Virus record (IMG/VR): IMGVR_UViG_3300032281_000616
Location: 64,001-128,000 of that record
Source: a virus
Taxonomy: Duplodnaviria; Caudoviricetes
Length of the DNA: 64,000 nt
Direction: 5' to 3' (one strand)
Positions 11,691-56,957 of the stretch are shown here, piece after piece. Under the pieces are notes generated by a model. That model searched no databases and was not told the DNA's origin. It saw nothing but the letters and a program-made list of their open reading frames with translations. The position numbers were made by a program, and so were the translations under genes. Position 1 is the first letter of the stretch. Every line of letters begins with the position of its first letter.

Positions 11691-11798
11691 ATGTCAGATT
11701 GGATAGGATTACCTGAGAATATTAGTGATTATATGGGGATTATATACTTAATTAGAAATAATCATCCCGATAGTACAAAGAAATTATATATTAAATAA
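11691..11798 (+). pseudogene. Truncated small GIY-YIG gene (35 aa N-terminal remnant)
   Basis: MSDWIGLPENISDYMGIIYLIRNNHPDSTKKLYIK*; preceded by TAAGTA-N5-ATG; breaks at the YIG motif where the inverted ORF 11784-13199 ends. Confidence 0.7.
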
Positions 11799-13199
11799 TT
11801 CATCATTAACATCATTTATTATATTTTCATAAAAAGAAACATCAATAGATTCCGTATAACCATCACTTAATTCATCCTTAGTAAAAAATTTAAAATTGTT
11901 TTTATATTTTTTCTTTATAAATCTTTCTAATCTCAATATATCAACCCCAGAAGCCTTAACATTATAAACCGTATCAAACTTTGAATTTGATAATCTACAT
12001 TGCGCCAATTTTCTCTTATGTATATTATTTGTTATTCCAATTTTTAGACCTTCTTTTCCACTAAAATGAGTGATTTTGTGTATATAGAAAAATCCATCTT
12101 TGCTTTGATTGAATCCCTTTGTACAACAGAATGGACATCCAGATTTACTGTTTATAACACAATCAATTTTAGTGAACCATGTGTTTTCACAAACATCACA
12201 TCTAAACTTTGCTTTTTGTTTAACTCCGGGTGGATTATGATCCAATAATGTTATTTCTTTTCCTTTCAATCTTTCGCATATATCTCCATATGTCAACTTC
12301 GCCTTACCTATACATTTTCCACATTGATATGATGGATTTCTTAAAATTATAGAAGGGGTGATACATATATGATGTCCATTTGGACAGGTCATTTTAATTT
12401 TTTTTGTTGAGTTTTTTATAATTTCAGTGGAATCTACAGAAAACCCGCGAAGTTTTAAGAAATATTTATATTGCTCGTCTGTTGGCCTCCATCTGTTGCC
12501 CAAACTTTTATCTGTAAAATTGCATAGTATGCATCCATTAGAACTCAGCAATTTGGTTGGAGCAGTTTCCCAACTATATCCACAAGAACTACAGGAAACG
12601 TTCCATTTTTCACAATTTTTATTCACGATATTAATATGATTGGTCAAACAATGATCGGATACACATTGTTCACAAAAAATATTTTTCAAAAATTTATCAG
12701 ACTGGAATAGGTTTTTATGACCTTTCTGACAATTTGATGATATGAATGATTCATCAATTGAAAAATTATAAAAGTTTAGATTCTTAAGCTTTTTTATATT
12801 TTTATTGACTTGTTTAGAATTTATTTTCTCTTTATGTTTATTGGTTCTACATATTTTACACCCTATTGTGGATTCTATTTTAAAAATATCATATATTCTT
12901 TTAAATGTTTCAGTTTCACAATGTAAACATTTAAGTTTGTGTTTTTTTAAAGTTGGATTATAATTCCCAACCAATTGAAATCCATAACTATTCAATTTTT
13001 TATTCATCGTTTCTGTGTTCAAACAATCACCACTACAGAATTTACAACTTCTTTTTCTATTAACAACGGAATACGGGACATTTTTATAAATGTGTCCATT
13101 ATCACACATTAATAGGCATGATTTGTAAAACTTTTCATAATTTGAATGTATTCCCCACCCAAATGGTTTCAATTTGATGTTGGCTTCTTCTAAATTCAT
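11784..13199 (-). mobile_element. Putative homing endonuclease: tandem CxxxH/CxxC zinc-ribbon repeats plus C-terminal GIY-YIG-like domain
   Basis: Many CxxC/CxxGH units; C-terminal GFFYIHKI...LKIGITNNIHKR. Confidence 0.7.
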
Positions 13200-13591
13200 A
13201 TATCTTTTCTATAAAATTTTCCGTTTATATTATTATTATAATAATTATCTTTCTCCAAAACCTCGTTTATGAATAAATATTTTAATTCATAATATGTCAA
13301 TTGTTTTTCAAAATTACATAAATGTAATATTTCCCTCTTTATAATATCCCCGGTTGATATATCAATCTTTAATTCTTCATTTGAACCACAATATTTTTTC
13401 CAATCGCTTTCTCTCTTGATTCTTTTTGTTTTACTCCCTATCTTTTTTTTGATAATGTGGTATAAAAATTTTTTCCCAACATATGTTTTATTTTTTGTAA
13501 TATTTGTTATTTTATAAACAAAACCAAAACAATTTATAGGAAAGTCTTCCAAGGTTTTAAGCTCAACGTCATTAAAGATCCAATCTGTCAT
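13196..13591 (-). CDS. Small GIY-YIG nuclease-family protein
   Basis: GFVYKITNITKNKTYVGKK...ESDWKKYCGS; TAAATA-N5-ATG promoter. Confidence 0.85.
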   Translation of the reverse strand: MTDWIFNDVELKTLEDFPINCFGFVYKITNITKNKTYVGKKFLYHIIKKKIGSKTKRIKRESDWKKYCGSNEELKIDISTGDIIKREILHLCNFEKQLTYYELKYLFINEVLEKDNYYNNNINGKFYRKDI

Positions 13592-13677
13592 AAATATATT
13601 TAATCAAACATGTTAATATTTTCAGATGATAACAAATAATCAATATATTTGAAAAATGTCAAATGAAAATTATAAAC

Positions 13678-13705
13678 TTGACATTGAGAGAAACCCTGAT
13701 ATTCT
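13678..13705 (+). promoter_or_regulatory. sigma70-type promoter TTGACA-N16-TATTCT
   Basis: Directly upstream of the ATG at 13715. Confidence 0.55.
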
Positions 13706-13714
13706 GAATTTACA

Positions 13715-13960
13715 ATGAAAAATACAAATAGGGTATATAGGAAACGACTCCATAAACAAATTTATAGGAAAAGATTTGGTGGATCTCAACCATCTCAACA
13801 ATTTCGATGGAAATGGAAAATAGCACTATACAAAACATTATTTTATAAAACACCAAATGTTGGACTTTGCTCGGAAATTGTGGGAATACAGCCCATGGAT
13901 GATCCAATTGGTCAAGCCTTTTACCTAAATTTATATGAACCATTACGAGATCAAAACTGA
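13715..13960 (+). CDS. Small basic protein carrying a gp23 (Gol-region)-like segment
   Basis: EIVGIQPMDDPIGQAFYL is 11/18 identical to EICGVQPMGGPVGLAFAL of the major capsid protein in this window. Confidence 0.65.
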   Translation: MKNTNRVYRKRLHKQIYRKRFGGSQPSQQFRWKWKIALYKTLFYKTPNVGLCSEIVGIQPMDDPIGQAFYLNLYEPLRDQN

Positions 13961-14474
13961 GGAAAATTATACAAAAATCATTTTTCATGACGAACGTATA
14001 ATTTTTACTGATATCGATACAGTTTTTAGAGAGACTAATATATTTTTCGCTAAAATATTAAGAGCAATGTTTATTGATGTTACATTCGATTTTTCTAAAA
14101 GCTATAATAAAACAATATACTCACATGCTTTCCTAAAAATAGTTTGCGAACATATTATAAGTCAAGAATCTAATTACAGATTATGTTTTTATAGCAATTC
14201 TCTAACTAAGGATAAATTCAGAAATTCCCTATTAAGAAAATTAAAATCAATCTTTGGATTCAAAATCTTAGAAGATGTTATGGATTTTTCTGAAGTTATT
14301 GAAAAAGTCGAAACAAACGATGCTGGATTGACTCCGAGATTAGAAATATTCTTTCAAAAAGACACCAAACCGAAGAGTTTTAAACATATTAAAAAATATC
14401 TAGAAAAAACTGGATTGAAAGATATGGGAACGCATTTTTATGATGTCGCCAATAAAATGAGCCTGATGTCATAA
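13935..14474 (+). CDS. hypothetical protein
   Basis: 179 aa ORF. Confidence 0.7.
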   Translation: MNHYEIKTEENYTKIIFHDERIIFTDIDTVFRETNIFFAKILRAMFIDVTFDFSKSYNKTIYSHAFLKIVCEHIISQESNYRLCFYSNSLTKDKFRNSLLRKLKSIFGFKILEDVMDFSEVIEKVETNDAGLTPRLEIFFQKDTKPKSFKHIKKYLEKTGLKDMGTHFYDVANKMSLMS

Positions 14475-19689: not shown

Positions 19690-19717
19690 TTGACTTTTTA
19701 GTTAAATATGGTAAATT
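19690..19717 (+). promoter_or_regulatory. sigma70-type promoter TTGACT-N16-TAAATT (TGn extended -10)
   Basis: Predicted +1 falls on the ATG at 19724. Confidence 0.55.
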
Positions 19718-20455
19718 ATGGATATGAGAATTGCCATGGTTGGTGCAGCAAACACCGGGAAGTCAACATTAGTCAAATTATTTCGTGATAAATGGCCCAT
19801 GTTCGTGAGTCCAACAAAAACATATAGAGATGTGATCACTGAATCTAATTTATCACATTCTTCTAATACATCTGAAGAAACTCAATTATTGATTTTGGAT
19901 TGGATGATGAAGGAGCAAGAAAAATATGGAGAGAAATCTAAAGTCATTTACGATCGTTGCCCTCTTGATAATCTAGTATATACACTATACGCAAATAGTA
20001 AAAATTTGATATCTGATGAGGTGTGCGCGGCTTCAATCTCTCTAGTTAGAGAATCCTTGAAAAATTTAGATATCATTTTCATGCTACGTTATGATCCAGA
20101 AATCAAAATCGTAGATGATGGAATGCGTGATACCGATCTACAATTTATTAAAGATACTGATCAAATTTTCGGTGATTTATATCATCAATATTGTGAGAAT
20201 TTGGAATCTGATATTTTCTTCCCGAAAGAAGATTGCCCAGCCATTATTCAAGTAGATGGTAAGAGTGTAGATGATAGAATTTGGTTTATTGGAGAATTTA
20301 TTGACTATAAAGGAGATCTAATCGAGACTACTAATAGTATCTTAGATCCAAGTAATGTTGATCTTCTTGAACAGATGTTGGGTGAACAACAAGCTGAGAT
20401 GGGTAAAGATGCTCAGATCAAATCCTTAATGAATCAAATCAAAACACAAAGATAA
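19718..20455 (+). CDS. P-loop nucleotide kinase-like protein (AAA_28/dNK-like); likely start 19724
   Basis: GAANTGKST at the N-terminus, DRCPLDNLVY. Confidence 0.8.
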   Translation: MDMRIAMVGAANTGKSTLVKLFRDKWPMFVSPTKTYRDVITESNLSHSSNTSEETQLLILDWMMKEQEKYGEKSKVIYDRCPLDNLVYTLYANSKNLISDEVCAASISLVRESLKNLDIIFMLRYDPEIKIVDDGMRDTDLQFIKDTDQIFGDLYHQYCENLESDIFFPKEDCPAIIQVDGKSVDDRIWFIGEFIDYKGDLIETTNSILDPSNVDLLEQMLGEQQAEMGKDAQIKSLMNQIKTQR

Positions 20456-27860: not shown

Positions 27861-28406
27861 ATGGCGAAGCGTTCTACCAAAGACAGATATGAAAGAATTT
27901 GGCAGGACTCTAAAGGAAATCTTCGTGATGCTTGGGGTCGATTCTTAAAAAGTTGGCAAGAGATCGATGGTTACAAAGAAGAAGAGAATTATCAATCTCA
28001 AATTAAACAATCTGATAGACAAATTCAAAGAGGTGAGTTAAAAAATATACTCACTAATAATGTCTGTGAGATTGTTTTTGTGCGTAGAAGACCCGAGAGA
28101 GCACCGGGAAGACCGGAGGTTAGGAGAATGCTATGCACATTATGTAGAAACATCCAAGTATCTGAAAGAGGAAAACGATCTCTTTCTTTTGAAGAACCAA
28201 AGACAAGCAGGAGGTTGGACGAAGTAAAACACAACATCGTAGTGGTTTGGGATATAATACAATGCAAATATCGCAATGTGAGTATGGACACATGCTATCT
28301 AAGACAGACAATACCCGGAGATGAAACTTTTTGGAAATATTATGATAAGGTATTTGCGCCAATGTCCTTTGGGCAAAAATCACAATGGATAGACTCTATC
28401 ACTTGA
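27861..28406 (+). CDS. WYL_2/DUF2693-like Sm/SH3 protein
   Basis: VCEIVFVRR...RRMLCTL...VVWDI...YRNV; TAAATA-N5-ATG. Confidence 0.6.
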   Translation: MAKRSTKDRYERIWQDSKGNLRDAWGRFLKSWQEIDGYKEEENYQSQIKQSDRQIQRGELKNILTNNVCEIVFVRRRPERAPGRPEVRRMLCTLCRNIQVSERGKRSLSFEEPKTSRRLDEVKHNIVVVWDIIQCKYRNVSMDTCYLRQTIPGDETFWKYYDKVFAPMSFGQKSQWIDSIT

Positions 28407-28435: not shown

Positions 28436-28771
28436 ATGATTAAACTGGAGAATGATCTTAAAGATATCGTGTTAAAAAATGTAGATTTTCAAATAGACGG
28501 GAAATCGATTAAAAAAGGTAAGGTTAAGGTTTTTAATACAAAACAATTTTTCATACGATTTAAATTGGAGAATGAAGAAAAAACTATAGAGTATGATTTG
28601 CCTTATCCGTTTAGAGTTGTTAAAAATCCCAAAGGTTATTTGTTTGATTATTCATTGTCAGCATTTTGCCCAAGAACAGAAGAATTATACTGGAAGATGA
28701 AACTTATGAATAAATCAGAAGCTTCCAGACTGCACGACAATTATCTCCATGTAATCACTTTATCTGCTTGA
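28436..28771 (+). CDS. hypothetical late protein
   Basis: 111 aa ORF; TAAGTA-N5-ATG. Confidence 0.7.
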   Translation: MIKLENDLKDIVLKNVDFQIDGKSIKKGKVKVFNTKQFFIRFKLENEEKTIEYDLPYPFRVVKNPKGYLFDYSLSAFCPRTEELYWKMKLMNKSEASRLHDNYLHVITLSA

Positions 28772-28796
28772 CTTTTGGTATCTTTGTGAGTATAAT
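28768..28796 (+). promoter_or_regulatory. Near-consensus sigma70 promoter TTGACT-N17-TATAAT
   Basis: Read directly from the sequence; 8 nt before the helicase ATG. Confidence 0.85.
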
Positions 28797-28804
28797 TTCA
28801 GTAG

Positions 28805-30418
28805 ATGACCAACTTAATTTTAAATTTTCCAGAGGGATATTCTCCAAACAAATCCCAGACAACCATTCTAAAAAAGATAGAGAAGGCTTTTTCGGATGGT
28901 AAAAAATATGTTATTGTGAATGCTCCCACCGGATCGGGGAAAGGCCACCTTCCTCTAACTTTATCGAATTCTACCAATGAGCCATCGGAGAAATTTAAAG
29001 AAAATGTAGATAATTATTCTATATTTGGGGAGGATGGGTTGAGTGTTATGGGTGATGAAACCTTTGGTTGCTATGCATTAACAATCACTAAATCTCTTCA
29101 AGATCAATATAAAAATACTTTCTCAGAAACAGGAGTATTAAAAGGTCAAAGCAACTATCAGTGTAAAGTGGATGATGAAATGACAGTAGATGTTGCTCCT
29201 TGTATCTACGTTAAGGGAATGAAAAACGATTGTTGGAAAGCTAACAAATGTCCGTATTACAATCAGAGGAATAAGATGTTGAAGAGTAGATTTGCAGCAT
29301 TAAATTACAGTATGTTCTTCTCTTTACCAGAGCACTTGAAGAAGAGAGAAATTTTGGTTTGTGATGAGGGATCGGAGTTGGAGGAACAACTCGTCTCGCA
29401 ATTCACATGCGAAGTAGATATCCCTTTTCTTATGAAGACTAACACCTCTGTTTCTTCATTTCCAGTAGAAGAAAAGCCTGCTAAAGTTGTCAATTGGTTA
29501 TCTGAACTTCTTAGAAATGTTTCAACTAATGTGGAATCATATAAGGAATACTTTAAAGAAGGTAAGAATGATCCAATGGAATTCAATAAAAAGAAGGGTG
29601 AATATTCTAAATTATTGAATCTACAATCTAGTTTAGAAATTCTCATTGGGACTTATTACGATTCAGAATATCTAATTGAAAGAGTTGACAAAAAAATTAG
29701 ATTCATACCTTTAAAGGTTGATAAACTTTCTAGCTTTTTGTTTGACCACGCTGATCGTGTTGTTATTATGTCTGCTACAATCATTGATCCACATAATTTC
29801 TGTAAAAATTTAGGGATAACAGATTACGAATATATTGAGGTTGATTCTGCTTTTGATTCCGAGAAAGCACCAATTTATATCTTAGCTTCGCAGAAATTAA
29901 ATTTCAAAAATATGGATCAAATGCTTCCAAAAATCGCTAAACAGGTTTCGGAATTGTTGGAAGAGCATAAGGACGAAAAGGGAATTATTCATACCCACAC
30001 TCAGTTTATAACCGACTATATTAGAAACAACGTAAAGTCTTCTCGTTTGCTATGTAGAGAAGGTGGAGTGCGTAATGAGGAACTTCTGGACATTCATGAG
30101 CGAAGTAAGGAACCCACTGTCCTAGTGAGTCCTAGCATGACTTATGGGGTTGATTTGAAGGGTGATCTTGGAAAATTTCAAATTCTTTTGAAAGCACCTT
30201 GGCTACCTACCAAAGATATCCGAGTTGAAAAGTTAATGAAGATTGATAGAGATTGGTATTCCAATGCTATGTTGAAAACATTAATCCAAGCTTGTGGTCG
30301 TGGGGTTCGATCTTTGGATGATGAATGTGTGACGTATATTTTAGATGGAAGTATTTTTGACGCTGTTCATAGAAATAAGAAGAAGTTGCCGAAGTTTTTC
30401 ATAGATAGATTTCAGTAA
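28805..30418 (+). CDS. dinG: DinG/YoaA/XPD-like Fe-S helicase
   Basis: APTGSGK, four-Cys cluster (C..APC..C..CPYY), MSAT, HTH, GVDLKG, QACGRGVRS. Confidence 0.88.
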   Translation: MTNLILNFPEGYSPNKSQTTILKKIEKAFSDGKKYVIVNAPTGSGKGHLPLTLSNSTNEPSEKFKENVDNYSIFGEDGLSVMGDETFGCYALTITKSLQDQYKNTFSETGVLKGQSNYQCKVDDEMTVDVAPCIYVKGMKNDCWKANKCPYYNQRNKMLKSRFAALNYSMFFSLPEHLKKREILVCDEGSELEEQLVSQFTCEVDIPFLMKTNTSVSSFPVEEKPAKVVNWLSELLRNVSTNVESYKEYFKEGKNDPMEFNKKKGEYSKLLNLQSSLEILIGTYYDSEYLIERVDKKIRFIPLKVDKLSSFLFDHADRVVIMSATIIDPHNFCKNLGITDYEYIEVDSAFDSEKAPIYILASQKLNFKNMDQMLPKIAKQVSELLEEHKDEKGIIHTHTQFITDYIRNNVKSSRLLCREGGVRNEELLDIHERSKEPTVLVSPSMTYGVDLKGDLGKFQILLKAPWLPTKDIRVEKLMKIDRDWYSNAMLKTLIQACGRGVRSLDDECVTYILDGSIFDAVHRNKKKLPKFFIDRFQ

Positions 30419-39059: not shown

Positions 39060-39680
39060 ATGAGCAATTCTAAGAAAAAAGAACAACCCAAGTGGCTTAG
39101 ACATCCTAAATCTCAACAAGAGAAAAAGGAGTTTGGTAAAGCCAAGGAAGAGGGTGTCCCAGTAAGAGGAAAACGCAAACCAGCTAATTTAGGAAATTTG
39201 TATGACGATAAAGAAATTGGTAGCAATATCAAAAAACAAAATAAATCCAAAAAGCCTTCCAGAGATACTATTCGAAAAGGAGAAGAAGACGAACAATCAC
39301 TTTCTAAACAAATGAAGAAATCAGGAAAGGTCACATTCAAAGGACCCAACGTGAAGGATCGTAAAAAATTCGCTCCAGCGACTAAAGTAGAAACACCCAA
39401 AAAAGGTAAAGGTTCTTATAATAGAAAAAACAAGAATGATGAAGATGAAGAATCTAAATCCTGTTGGAAGGGTTACGTGAAAAAAGGAATGAAAAAGAAA
39501 GGTGATAGAAAAGTCCCTAACTGTGTAAAGGAGTCCTATGAGGAAAACGCAACTATACATAGATTTGTTAATTCCGTTCTTTCTAAAAATTATTCTAAAG
39601 CTGATGACTATCTTAAAAGGATAGTAGAACAAAAACTAGCTAAAAAAATTAAAGCTGAGTTAAATACACCATTATTTTAA
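39060..39680 (+). CDS. Basic modular prohead-locus protein (ArfA-like motif, CWKGY..VPNC motif, gp67-like helical end)
   Basis: Located between gp21 and gp22; contains KVETPKKGKGSYNRK; TAAATA-N5-ATG. Confidence 0.6.
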   Translation: MSNSKKKEQPKWLRHPKSQQEKKEFGKAKEEGVPVRGKRKPANLGNLYDDKEIGSNIKKQNKSKKPSRDTIRKGEEDEQSLSKQMKKSGKVTFKGPNVKDRKKFAPATKVETPKKGKGSYNRKNKNDEDEESKSCWKGYVKKGMKKKGDRKVPNCVKESYEENATIHRFVNSVLSKNYSKADDYLKRIVEQKLAKKIKAELNTPLF

Positions 39681-40666: not shown

Positions 40667-42142
40667 ATGAAAGAAATTCCACAAACTGGTAATGAAAGCA
40701 AAATTCAAGGGCTTGTTAGAAAATGGGCTAAGGTTCTAGATTACGAAAGTAATTCTATCCCAGCCATTCAAAACGAGCATGTCTATAAGACAACTGCGAT
40801 GCTATTAGAAAACCAAGAAAGATGGTGTATCGAAGAAGCTGGAAACTCTTCTGCTGGTATTTTCGGAGCTACTGCTGGGGCCAATGCAACACAAGGTCTT
40901 GTCAAAGCTGACGGATATGCTACTGGAGACTCCCGCCTTCCTAAGATTCTCATTCCTATGATTCGTCGTACTTTCCCTGAACTTATCTCCAACGAGATTT
41001 GCGGTGTTCAACCTATGGGTGGTCCGGTTGGTCTAGCTTTCGCTCTGCGTTATGCATATCAATCAAACTTCCTAAATGAAACCGATCACGTTGGTCAAAC
41101 AAGTGTTGGAACTCGTGGCACAAACCCAGGTCTTGGATATGGTGGAAACGGTCCTACAAGTCCGTCTCTATCCACTGTCCCGTCCTCGGAACTTGGCTAT
41201 CAACTTCTTGATACTCGTTTTACTGGTGTTAGCTCTGCTGCCTTAAGTGGTCACGCAGAATGGGGCTTCAGTCTACAAGATACAGGTGTCGCACAACTAC
41301 TCGAAAACTACGAGAACACTGGTCGTATTCCACAAATCGAAATGAAGTTTGAAAAAACCTCAGTCGAAGCTGGAACTCGCAGACTTGCTACCCGTTGGTC
41401 TATCGAACTTGAACAAGATATCAAAAATATGCAAGGCATCGACATCGATGGCGAGCTTACTAATGCTATGTCTTATGAAATTCAAGCCGAAATCGACCGT
41501 GAAGTTGTTATGCGTATGATCCAAGCCGCGTTTAACGCTGGTTATGGTGCTGGTATCTCCATCTGGAGTCCAGTAAGTGCTGATGGTCGTTGGACTGCTG
41601 AACGTAATCTTACATTCTATCAACGTCTTGTAATCGAAGCTGGTCGTATGGCTGCTCGTAACCGTAGAGGTGCCGCTAACTTTGTTATCGCTACTCCTCG
41701 CGTTTGCAGTATCCTCGAAATGCTTCCTGACTTCAAGGTATACGAAATCAATGGCACAGTTTCTACTGCTGGTGTTGGTATCGCTAAAGTTGGTACTGTT
41801 GGATCTCGTTTCACCGTTTATCGTGACACTCGTACCGAGACACAGAACTCAACTCTATACGGAGACAATGGATATCGTCCAACTCGCACTGATGCAGTCG
41901 AGTATTGCTTGATGGGTTATAAAGGTTCTGAGTATTATGATACGGGAATAATCTATTGTCCATATATTCCAATCATGGTTCAAAGAGCTATCGATCCTGT
42001 TAACTTCACACCTCGCGTTGGTCTAATGACCCGTTACGGTATCGTTAACAACATCTTCGGTGCAAATCTTTATTACCATATTATTGTAGTCAAGGGACTA
42101 GGCGTTGCGTTTACACCCGGAAGTACTAGCGTGTATTTGTAA
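40667..42142 (+). CDS. gp23: Major capsid protein (gp23)
   Basis: RRTFPELISNEICGVQPMGGPVGLAF, EIQAEIDRE, YCPYIP, FTPRVGLMTRYG. Confidence 0.98.
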   Translation: MKEIPQTGNESKIQGLVRKWAKVLDYESNSIPAIQNEHVYKTTAMLLENQERWCIEEAGNSSAGIFGATAGANATQGLVKADGYATGDSRLPKILIPMIRRTFPELISNEICGVQPMGGPVGLAFALRYAYQSNFLNETDHVGQTSVGTRGTNPGLGYGGNGPTSPSLSTVPSSELGYQLLDTRFTGVSSAALSGHAEWGFSLQDTGVAQLLENYENTGRIPQIEMKFEKTSVEAGTRRLATRWSIELEQDIKNMQGIDIDGELTNAMSYEIQAEIDREVVMRMIQAAFNAGYGAGISIWSPVSADGRWTAERNLTFYQRLVIEAGRMAARNRRGAANFVIATPRVCSILEMLPDFKVYEINGTVSTAGVGIAKVGTVGSRFTVYRDTRTETQNSTLYGDNGYRPTRTDAVEYCLMGYKGSEYYDTGIIYCPYIPIMVQRAIDPVNFTPRVGLMTRYGIVNNIFGANLYYHIIVVKGLGVAFTPGSTSVYL

Positions 42143-42279: not shown

Positions 42280-43851
42280 ATGACAGATATCGACATCAAA
42301 GACAAACTTCTAAAAGTATCCAAGGAACAATACAAAGGATCTCTAAGATTTTTTAAACCAAAGCTTACTGAATTAATCATCGGTAAGGAAGCTCTGGATC
42401 ATATCAAAAAAAGAATAGACACTAAACTACAAAAATCACACACATTAATGCTGTATTGTTATCTGAATGATATTTATGAAACACCTAAATGTGTCTGTGG
42501 ATTTGATACAAAATTTAATACTACCACGAAGGAGTTTATGAAGTATTGTAGTAATAAATGTAGATTTGATAATTTCTCTGAGGTGGTGGAAGTCAGAAAG
42601 CAATCAAACTTAGAAAAATATGGAACAAGTAATTATCTTGCTAGTGAAGAGGGTAAGAGAAAAATAAAAGATTCTAATATTGAAAAATATGGTGTATCAA
42701 ACTACACACAGACTGATGAATATAAAGAGAGTGTTAGAGGGAAAAAGAATTCTCCTGAACAAATCCTTAAAACAAAAGAGGCGCATCTAAAAAGATCATA
42801 TACCAATCTTATTAAAAAATTTACCCACTGTAAACCTCTTTTCTCATTAGAAGAATTCGGTGGAGTGAGAGGATATAAACAATATCCTTGGTCATGTAAT
42901 AAATGTAAATCTAGTTTTATATCCTCATGTGATAATGGAAGTTCTCCTATATGTAATTATTGCGAACCTACAGGATCTAAACATGAAGTTGTTTGTAAAG
43001 AATTGCTAGAATCATTAGAGGTGGATTACAAATATCGATACAGAAAGCTACCATCTGGTAAAGAAATAGATCTATTTGTTCCAGATAAAATGTTTGGAAT
43101 AGAACTATGTGGGTTATATTGGCACTCTACCGCTGGTCCTAGTTACGCAAAACCAAATCATGTTAATAAACTAAACGAATGCGAAGAGAATGGAATAAAA
43201 TTATTTACAATATTTGATGATGAAATGTATAATCCAGTAAAGAAACGAATAGTTTTAAATAAAATTAAAAATTCAGTTGGACAAAACAAGAGAAAAATAC
43301 ACGCCAGAAAATGTAAAATAATTGAATTGGATTCGAATATATGTAGTAAATTTTTGGAAAAATATCACATTCAAGGTGCTATAGGTTCCTCTTATAAATA
43401 CGGTTTAACATATAAAAATAGGCTCGTTGCAGTAATGACATTTAATAAAGGAAGAACTTCAACTGGACACAAACCCGTAGAGGGGGAATGGGAACTTGGT
43501 AGATATTGTACGATCTTTAATTTTAATGTAGTTGGTGGTGCGAGTAAATTATTAGCTCATTTTATAAAAAATATAAACCCCACTAAAATCTATTCATATG
43601 CTGATCGAAGATGGAGTAATGGTGATATGTATAATAAAATAGGCTTCACTTTTGTTAAAAATACTACACCAAACTATTGGTATACTAAAACGTTCAAAAC
43701 TAGAGAACACAGAGTCAAATTTCAAAAGCATAAGCTAGTTGATATGCCTTCTTACGATGAGTCTCTGACAGAAGAAGAAATAATGAAAAGAGAAAAATAT
43801 TTTAAGATTTGGGATTGTGGGTCAAAACTTTATGAGTGGACTAAATTTTAA
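42280..43851 (+). mobile_element. Putative homing endonuclease (EKYG repeats, zinc ribbon, PD-(D/E)xK-type domain, Hef-like C-terminus)
   Basis: LEKYG repeats, EIDLFVP..FGIELCGLYWHS, ARKC, VVGGASKL, IWDCG. Confidence 0.8.
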
Positions 43852-56686: not shown

Positions 56687-56714
56687 TTGACTTTATAAAA
56701 CACTAAGGTATGAT
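56687..56714 (+). promoter_or_regulatory. sigma70-type promoter TTGACT-N16-TATGAT
   Basis: Predicted +1 coincides with the ATG at 56721. Confidence 0.65.
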
Positions 56715-56720
56715 TATCGT

Positions 56721-56957
56721 ATGTCATCTGAACTGACCCAACACATCGAAGCTATGGGATTAATCTTCACTGAAATGGAGAGACGTAGAAAAGAAGACCC
56801 TGATGATTTCAAAGATCTCTTAGATCAAGCTGATGGTAATTTCGGAATAGCCTATGCCTTTTTATTTTTGTTGGTTGAGGATAATCTCAGGGATCGAATG
56901 ATAATAAAAAGACACGCGAAAAAACCACAACTATTAGAATGTATTTATGGAAATTGA
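56721..56957 (+). CDS. hypothetical protein
   Basis: 78 aa ORF. Confidence 0.65.
   Translation: MSSELTQHIEAMGLIFTEMERRRKEDPDDFKDLLDQADGNFGIAYAFLFLLVEDNLRDRMIIKRHAKKPQLLECIYGN

Follow-up and report, generated by a model that had tools for sequence, protein, structure and literature searches.

Described systems and the ORF81 locus

The Gol stretch in gp23, phage T4's major capsid protein, is the classic capsid-derived trigger of abortive infection, and both the reason for its conservation and the benefit that the phage might draw from binding elongation factor Tu (EF-Tu) have been in question since 2000. In the Gol-Lit-EF-Tu exclusion system of prophage e14, the Gol peptide of 29 amino acids (aa) alone binds domains II/III of EF-Tu, inhibits the GTPase and makes EF-Tu a substrate of Lit, the Gol stretch being the most conserved part of gp23 (PMC3014915). 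Capsid proteins are sensed by many defences, and Avs7 incorporates EF-Tu (bioRxiv 10.64898/2026.01.04.697583; PMC9712102). The subject of this analysis is ORF81, an open reading frame (ORF) of 81 aa located in a 64,000-nt stretch of viral DNA, further called the window, which corresponds to bases 64001-128000 of the IMG/VR record IMGVR_UViG_3300032281_000616, a virus record of 202,205 bp carrying direct terminal repeats. The source is a T4-like phage with 33% G+C, whose nearest cultured relatives by the capsid protein are cyanophages with only ~33% identity. On the grounds of its sequence and relatives, ORF81 is a selected, mobile accessory gene which encodes the Gol stretch as a free module and is probably expressed early.

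The T4 Gol and the ORF81 family have the same capsid stretch in common (T4 gp23 105-128). However, the former is an internal part of a late structural protein of 521 aa, while the latter is encoded by a separate gene with an early-type promoter, has a basic two-helix N-terminus and carries the signature F-Y/H-L/M-N in place of F-A-L/M-R of gp23. The Gp23 family (PF07068; PDB 5vf3, 6uzc, 7vs5) shows significant local homology to ORF81 at profile positions 21-45, but only ~25 of its 376 positions are represented in ORF81, which cannot form the HK97 fold because the P, A and I domains are absent.

Small satellite and phage proteins that imitate part of a morphogenetic protein or of a trigger resemble ORF81 in potentially competing for the binding site of a structural protein, two examples being CpmB and DSAD1. 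CpmB of the Staphylococcus aureus pathogenicity islands (SaPI) mimics the C-terminus of the scaffold. DSAD1 blocks the tail-tube sensor DSR2 (PMC11087589). In contrast to ORF81, they are not copies of a capsid sequence and their binding has been demonstrated. A further parallel are the homing-endonuclease cassettes with passenger sequence or recoded target-gene ends: they have in common with the ORF81 locus a seg hot spot, allele replacement with a sharp breakpoint and nested invasion, while the capsid-like piece of ORF81 is not located beside gene 23, is not a replacement end of a neighbour and persists without the endonuclease.

Homology of ORF81 to the Gol region of gp23

The gene, its two halves and the capsid counterpart in the same window are as follows.

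13715..13960, + strand: ORF81, the mini-protein gene, 81 aa, intact ORF
13715..13849, + strand: basic N-terminal half of ORF81 (residues 1-45), two predicted helices, with the family motif M-N-K-x-H-…-K-I-Y-R-Q-x-x-G (alignment A4)
13859..13930, + strand: Gol-like segment of ORF81 (residues 49-72), predicted beta-hairpin, homologous to gp23 105-128
40667..42142: own major capsid protein gp23, 491 aa, ~27 kb downstream of ORF81 (Pfam Gp23, E 1.7e-84)
40979..41050, + strand: ORF81-homologous stretch inside the own gp23 (residues 105-128; BLASTP and alignment)

An initial annotation of the window had described a stand-alone 81-aa ORF, the end of which was identical in 11 of 18 positions to the phage's own gp23 encoded 27 kb away, while its N-terminal half was considered an unrelated Arg/Lys-rich segment; the capsid stretch was equated with the Gol region of T4. 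The ORF was present as described and the count of identities was right by eye. The unrelated character of the N-terminal half was borne out by the translation and the family alignment: the Lys/Arg-rich residues 1-45 had no match in Pfam or PHROGs and were unrelated to gp23.

In BLASTP, residues 51-71 of ORF81 matched residues 107-127 of the own gp23 with 11/21 identities (E 1e-5). This pairwise match alone is borderline, with E ~0.7 by our estimate after an all-against-all correction for the window, but the homology can be regarded as solid because independent profile tests agree beyond the pairwise E-value. Pfam Gp23 was the sole Pfam family matched by ORF81 (15.3 bits at profile positions 21-41, below the family cut-off of 24.4 bits), and a PF07068 search across the whole genome produced gp23 and ORF81 only (E 0.0014 and 15.2 bits for ORF81), with no gp24-type paralogue detected anywhere. 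The same Pfam family was matched individually by 12 of the 13 members of the mini-protein family (best E 2.6e-6). Alignment of the family profile with the gp23 profile in hhalign gave a probability of 95.5% (E 1.4e-8, 27 columns), and when all PDB sequences were searched with the family profile, the sole match was T4 gp23 105-128 (E 0.002), which places the copied stretch in the Gol region, as had been assumed. The limits of the Gol 29-mer within T4 gp23 we take to be about 93-122. The T4 numbering was anchored on Met98 and L106, both named in the structure paper (PMC9546572), and on the alignment.

The DNA identity between ORF81 and the own gp23 gene was no higher than demanded by the protein similarity, so the constraint is one on the protein. 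A recent duplication of the resident gp23 was ruled out as the origin of ORF81 by the 11/21 aa identity, by this unremarkable DNA identity and by the hairpin being closer to those of other mini-proteins.

The AlphaFold2 model built from the family alignment contained helices at residues 3-21 and 28-45 with a predicted local distance difference test score (pLDDT) of 69-86, followed by a beta-hairpin with strands 55-63/66-74, which was the weaker part of low confidence; the mean pLDDT of the whole model was 66. A Foldseek search with this model against viral structures returned nothing under E 2, no surprise given its 81 aa and its pLDDT of 66, and the model of the own gp23 made from a 7-row alignment (pLDDT 33) was unusable for judging the hairpin there. 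Judged by homology and predicted structure, what the mini-proteins display on their basic two-helix handle is the N-arm end of the capsid protein together with the stretch behind it (T4 gp23 105-128).

The mini-protein family

At least 13 divergent metagenomic homologues of 61-81 aa were found, with the basic two-helix N-terminus and the Gol hairpin in common. An exhaustive HMMER search among 1.84 billion representatives recovered eight of them (63-77 aa, full-length alignment, E 2.6e-10 to 3e-4, 37-55% identity), and profile searches enlarged the family beyond these first matches. With ORF81 alone as the query, a word-indexed search and an IMG/VR pattern scan gave nothing, the family emerging only via the exhaustive HMMER search. 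Its members are built of an N-terminus M-N-K-x-H…K-I-Y-R-Q-x-x-G, a variable basic middle and a block E-I-x-G-x-x-P-M-x-G-P-x-G-x-x-F-Y/H-L/M-N, ending a few residues later; in its more permissive form the block begins with E-I-x-G-x-x-P-M/I-x-x-P. Both halves are conserved (alignments A3, A4) and the indels leave the reading frame unbroken. ORF81 fits this definition but is somewhat derived, having K for Q of Y-R-Q, three inserted residues close to the start and a C-terminus lengthened by 8 residues; its closest homologue, P0002, is also intact and has the same extended 3' arrangement.

For the ten members with DNA, the proportion of nonsynonymous differences (pN) was 0.17-0.45 against a saturated proportion of synonymous differences (pS) of 0.63-0.98 (Nei-Gojobori). 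The ratio of nonsynonymous to synonymous rates (dN/dS) was ~0.25 in the least saturated pair and ~0.08 in the hairpin when the window was compared with the L008 contig, these values being rough because of the saturated synonymous sites. This pattern indicates that the ORF81 family is under purifying selection. A profile search and a dN/dS check had been proposed in the initial annotation, which set its stand-alone gene against a decaying recombination scar. Once run, they revealed a stand-alone family with pN far below pS, and, because of this conserved family under purifying selection, ORF81 is taken as a real gene and not a decaying scar.

No family covering the mini-proteins was present in Pfam or PHROGs, where only capsid matches were obtained. 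The tblastn searches with ORF81, P0011 and P0003 against 50,697 GenBank phage records produced weak matches to full-length capsid proteins and chance matches with no stand-alone member among them, while blastn of the ORF81 region against the GenBank phages gave no match. In the literature, no description of a family combining a basic handle with a Gol hairpin was found. The family appears to be new, i.e., undescribed as far as found, and the class that suits it best is that of a known functional peptide region in a free-standing version.

The last profile search extended the picture to proteins of 60-98 aa (P0019-P0031) encoded on long T4-like contigs, the size of which reaches 261 kb. Here, R-R-x-F-F/L-K with a hydrophobic stretch, resembling a leader of the twin-arginine translocation (Tat) type, is followed by a longer piece of the same capsid region (L-I-P-L-V-R-R-x-x-P-x-L-I-A-x-E-I-V-G-V-Q-P-M-x-G-P-T-G-Q-V-F-Y-L/M-N). 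The genes sit among early, replication or auxiliary genes. The Tat-leader mini-proteins have the capsid module, the F-Y-L/M-N ending and the organization as stand-alone accessory genes among early/replication genes in common with the ORF81 family, but differ from it by the twin-arginine-like hydrophobic leader and a capsid piece extending back to L-I-P-L-V-R-R, while the ORF81 family is distinguished by the hydrophilic basic handle and the tie to seg endonuclease hot spots. In ORF81 and its 12 closest relatives the N-terminus is hydrophilic, Lys/Arg-rich and free of any hydrophobic stretch, so that a Tat-type leader is absent. No description of Tat-leader capsid-fragment mini-proteins was found in print either.

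The identity in the hairpin was 0.57 between the two flavours, 0.60-0.62 within each and 0.50-0.51 for either of them against real gp23, and the Arg which follows F-A-L invariantly in gp23 was replaced by Asn in most mini-proteins. Because their hairpins are closer to each other than to gp23, the mini-proteins have the look of a single old lineage of paralogues and not of gp23 copied anew time and again. An apparent joining of a C-terminal gp23 motif to an N-terminal one in P0016 and P0028 was rejected, since the alignment showed the Y-I-P-L stretch to be the L-I-P-L-V-R-R region.

The Tat-leader genes of two large T4-like contigs (L119 7184-9608; L118 942-1457; L119 3760-4179) were located near NAMPT+NUDIX and NADAR genes and a DNA methylase, i.e., auxiliary kinds often linked to counter-defence. 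Outside the window, at L120 442-1026 (- strand; G000:C1:50441-51025), a 194-aa protein is encoded with a twin-arginine-like leader (…K-M-R-R-R-N-F-I-G-G…) and a hydrophobic stretch, and this leader parallels that of the Tat-leader capsid-fragment proteins of other T4-like phages.

Homing-endonuclease hot spot and allele turnover

ORF81 is surrounded by the following features.

11691..11798, + strand: 5' remnant of the original SegE-type GIY-YIG gene, 35 codons, cut off by a stop right in front of the YIG motif; 18/24 identities with the N-terminus of the seg of relative L003, which is intact (E 8e-14)
11784..13199, - strand: Zn-ribbon/T5orf172 endonuclease-like gene, 471 aa, a member of the inverted cassette (Pfam DUF4379 1.8e-8, T5orf172 1.4e-3)
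13196..13591, - strand: intact SegE-type GIY-YIG gene, 131 aa, a member of the inverted cassette (Pfam SegE_GIY-YIG 3.1e-31)
13654..13718, + strand: 3' remnant of the destroyed seg (last ~17 codons 13665-13718), ending in …ENYKLDIERNPDILNLQ*, its stop overlapping the ORF81 start (ATGA)
13935..14474, + strand: 179-aa gene, function not assigned, starting 26 nt inside ORF81; synteny with the relatives resumes exactly here

The synteny with two relatives breaks at 11763 and resumes at 13928-13935, and the interval contains the inverted cassette, both ends of an older + strand seg gene and ORF81. The 3' remnant was identical in 23/23 nt to the 3' end of the L003 seg, and in tblastn it reached 70% to the L003 and 56% to the L004 seg C-terminus. 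The whole region 11691-13718 has the appearance of a nested invasion, in which a + strand SegE-type gene is split by an inverted cassette carrying a second, diverged SegE-type gene. As judged from these remnants, the + strand seg gene is destroyed by the nested insertion, while ORF81 and its promoter survive.

The mini-genes occupied three genome positions. In the commonest, found in six loci including the window with its remnant, the mini-gene follows directly behind a short SegE-type gene. The intact order seg, mini-gene, 175-179-aa gene and, further on, a RimB-like gene was present in L013/L014, L010, L023 and L024, and the same order with a frameshifted seg and an intact mini-gene in L008. 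In the second position (L020, L022) the mini-gene lies directly behind the DNA ligase gene and in the third (L011, L012) between the terminase and tail-tube genes, with no seg adjoining in either, so that it is mobile and independent of Seg. The mini-gene is assigned to a homing-endonuclease hot spot, as a mobile and hypervariable element. The same hot spot in L003 (3201-4001) and L004 (2612-3454, - strand) carried unrelated proteins of 266 and 280 aa, respectively, function not assigned, instead of the mini-gene, pointing to a high turnover of the slot. A derivation of ORF81 by deletion from the 266-aa gene following seg in L003 was rejected: the only match was the 6-residue Y-L-N-L-Y-E (E 0.06 in a tiny search space), explained by AT-rich chance.

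The occurrence of the mini-gene is sporadic. The relative G002 (96% complete) and 20 further related contigs, including two complete genomes, contained only the gp23 match and no mini-gene. Contigs of the runs X2 (98% identity) and X4 (~90%), obtained from other samples, match the window only from 13932/13934 onward; their upstream sequence differs, yet encodes endings of the family type (…V-G-T-V-F-H-L-N-Y and …Q-I-F-Y-M-N-I-V-K). In an X3 contig both the promoter and the downstream gene are kept, with 188 nt in between instead of 215. The L013 contig (P0013) has a gp23 92% identical to that of the window, while its mini-protein is only 41% identical. These comparisons indicate strongly diverged alleles in strains that are otherwise nearly the same, 90-98% identical in the flanks, and a cassette-like allele replacement with a sharp breakpoint at 13932-13935, as expected beside homing endonucleases; the variability of the alleles would be compatible with diversifying selection as well.

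Promoter and expression

13678..13705, + strand: predicted sigma70-type promoter TTGACA-N16-(TGa)TATTCT, the -10 box ending 9 nt before the ORF81 ATG

At such a short distance of the -10 box from the ATG, a near-leaderless transcript is predicted. In the six seg-linked loci the pattern TTGAC(A/T)-N16-TAnnnT was present at the same distance from the ATG in 6/6 and the TGn extension in 5/6, the boxes being constant even though the peptides encoded there differ between two seg subfamilies. A comparable box pair is located upstream of the L011 member behind the terminase gene. In the window, promoter and ATG were combined in this geometry at 8 sites against ~1 in shuffles, and one of these sites precedes the gene of a 537-aa helicase. 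The sigma70-type promoter is credible because its position is conserved across the loci within variable seg coding sequence and because the same geometry occurs at other genes, so an early-type promoter is likely to precede ORF81. No TAAATA late box was present before ORF81, while this box is located 6-9 nt before the ATG in many genes of the window, including gp21, gp22 and gp23. The earlier claim of a sigma70-type promoter in the absence of the late TAAATA motif held in so far as the boxes are present and conserved in position; what had escaped notice is that the same nucleotides are also the 3' coding end of the dead seg.

Almost no gene in the window has a Shine-Dalgarno sequence. Because of this near absence, together with the late boxes located 6-9 nt before the ATGs, the phage seems to use leaderless or near-leaderless mRNAs throughout.

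Further TTGAC(A/T)-N15-17-TAnnnT sites, located 5-11 nt before real ORF starts and representing candidate early promoters, were found at 28768-28807, 19690-19726, 56687-56723 and 11215-11176 (- strand). Starts of the (C)TAAATA type occur, for example, at 27861, 34827, 38380, 39060, 39702, 42280, 43947 and 56013.

Possible function of the mini-protein

The interpretation in the initial annotation is partly supported: the Gol homology, the gene as such and a likely early promoter stand, while a decoy or an EF-Tu-binding modulator of translation would be candidate functions. We tentatively propose epitope mimicry, as a possible rather than a probable mode of action. The mini-protein, made before gp23, would occupy a factor that reads the capsid epitope. 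The first choice for such a factor would be a host capsid-sensing immune protein of low abundance (Lit-like or Avs/CapRel-like), bound without activation, and the second EF-Tu itself, for which alone binding to this stretch is known in T4, our tentative grading covering both choices jointly. The partner is probably external and bound by the hairpin and the capsid protein alike, because the free hairpin keeps the residues of the capsid stretch without the rest of the fold. The basic helices may strengthen the binding or, on nucleic acid or the ribosome, provide a second contact.

In favour of this proposal count the selected family with both halves conserved, its homology to the Gol region, its independence from Seg, the early-type promoter, the hypervariable slot and the published findings on EF-Tu binding by Gol and on capsid sensing by defences. 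Several points weigh against it. EF-Tu is so abundant that no small accessory protein would titrate it. Nor does the hairpin follow the resident gp23, with PTGQVF-Y-L-N in the mini-proteins versus PVGLAF-A-L-R in the gp23 of this lineage. The mini-gene is missing from the near-complete relatives searched and is therefore dispensable, and the related Tat-leader flavour would suggest a place of action in the membrane or periplasm and not at sensors of the cytoplasm. Furthermore, the free Gol peptide activates Lit and does not block it (PMC3014915), so a mimic might even be harmful unless it is an antagonist, and the naive decoy idea needs such an antagonist twist. Co-folding of residues 44-81 of ORF81 with domains II-III of Escherichia coli EF-Tu, run as a single job, gave a score of 0.01 versus the mark of 0.32 and is evidence neither way.

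A natural, selected and separate Gol module offers a direct handle on the question of why the stretch is conserved, implying that it is useful outside the capsid fold, and makes the mini-proteins ready-made candidates for trials with EF-Tu, with Lit-like proteases and with the growing number of capsid sensors (CapRel, Avs7/8/10). If they were decoys, they would represent a new class of anti-defence proteins derived from the trigger itself. The generalization of this proposal must be considered unlikely on present grounds: large T4-like phages would express, early and from own promoters, free copies of the most conserved epitopes of core proteins, such as the Gol hairpin with its basic handle here and with a Tat-like leader elsewhere, as antagonist decoys pre-occupying capsid-sensing immunity or its EF-Tu site, with these copies spreading on homing-endonuclease cassettes and diversifying in an arms race.

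Among the other explanations, all judged on the same evidence, an assembly- or prohead-directed protein fares best, although it is unlikely. In this case, the hairpin would dock on gp23, the scaffold or the portal at the site of the true stretch, with the result that either the basic DNA-binding handle is brought into the head, the protein being an internal or injected one, or the assembly of capsids is disturbed, possibly those of co-infecting competitors. The T4 prohead provides a structural basis, since the Gol stretch begins the ordered shell and faces the core: L106, the first ordered gp23 residue in the unexpanded head, points inward, and the N-terminal part preceding it is thought to contact the scaffolding core (PMC9546572). 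The strongly basic handle fits such a role, as do the hairpin, which is as similar to the pan-T4 gp23 as the resident gp23 is, and the linkage to homing endonucleases, with which phages compete against each other. However, the mini-gene has an early-type promoter and not the late TAAATA box of the head genes gp21, gp22 and gp23 in the window, and its linkage to head genes is absent except for the two loci behind the terminase gene. If true, an assembly factor or competitor poison of this sort would represent a novel type of small protein directed at the capsid. Whether for decoys or for assembly factors, the tie to homing-endonuclease hot spots illustrates how genes of this kind move.

An improbable explanation is that of a leader peptide or upstream ORF, the translation of which would serve mainly for controlling or coupling the translation of the downstream gene that it overlaps, while its product would have no function in trans. 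The near-leaderless promoter is placed directly in front of the mini-gene, at most loci the next gene starts within its stop or 3' end, and ORF81 is the first + strand gene after the inverted cassette in the window. Yet the downstream genes differ among the three locus types, the capsid-homologous hairpin of 25 residues is conserved at the aa level despite saturated synonymous sites, and in unrelated contexts this module is found joined to other handles.

Quite improbable is also an accessory subunit of the short SegE-type endonuclease, which would supply DNA binding or immunity to the 146-152-aa Seg lacking the long C-terminal DNA-binding part. The predicted basic helices, the overlapping position of the mini-gene immediately downstream of seg in six loci and the combined size of Seg and mini-protein, which is about that of the T4 Seg proteins, speak for it. 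On the other hand, the mini-gene is intact where seg is destroyed (window) or frameshifted (L008), also occurs behind the ligase or terminase genes with no adjacent seg, and is lacking as a partner beside seg in L003 and L004; moreover, the capsid homology would be left without a reason.

The weakest candidate, a non-functional recombination scar open by chance, is very improbable and largely refuted at the family level, since the graveyard of nested endonuclease insertions at the site, the missing mini-gene in the closest near-complete relatives and the derived N-terminus and 8-residue C-terminal extension of ORF81 are outweighed by full-length homologues at three loci with both halves conserved and frame-preserving indels, by pN far below pS, by the conserved promoter and by the intact closest homologue P0002 with the same extended 3' arrangement. 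The probability left after the listed readings belongs to mechanisms not thought of.

Other observations in the window

At 39060-39680, between the prohead protease and scaffold genes, a 206-aa protein is encoded, whose residues 108-126 matched Pfam ArfA (a ribosome-rescue factor) with E 4.2e-7. The gene directly after gp23 (42280-43851) encodes a 523-aa DUF7487 protein and is possibly another mobile endonuclease-like gene; in T4, the position directly after gp23 is occupied by segD.
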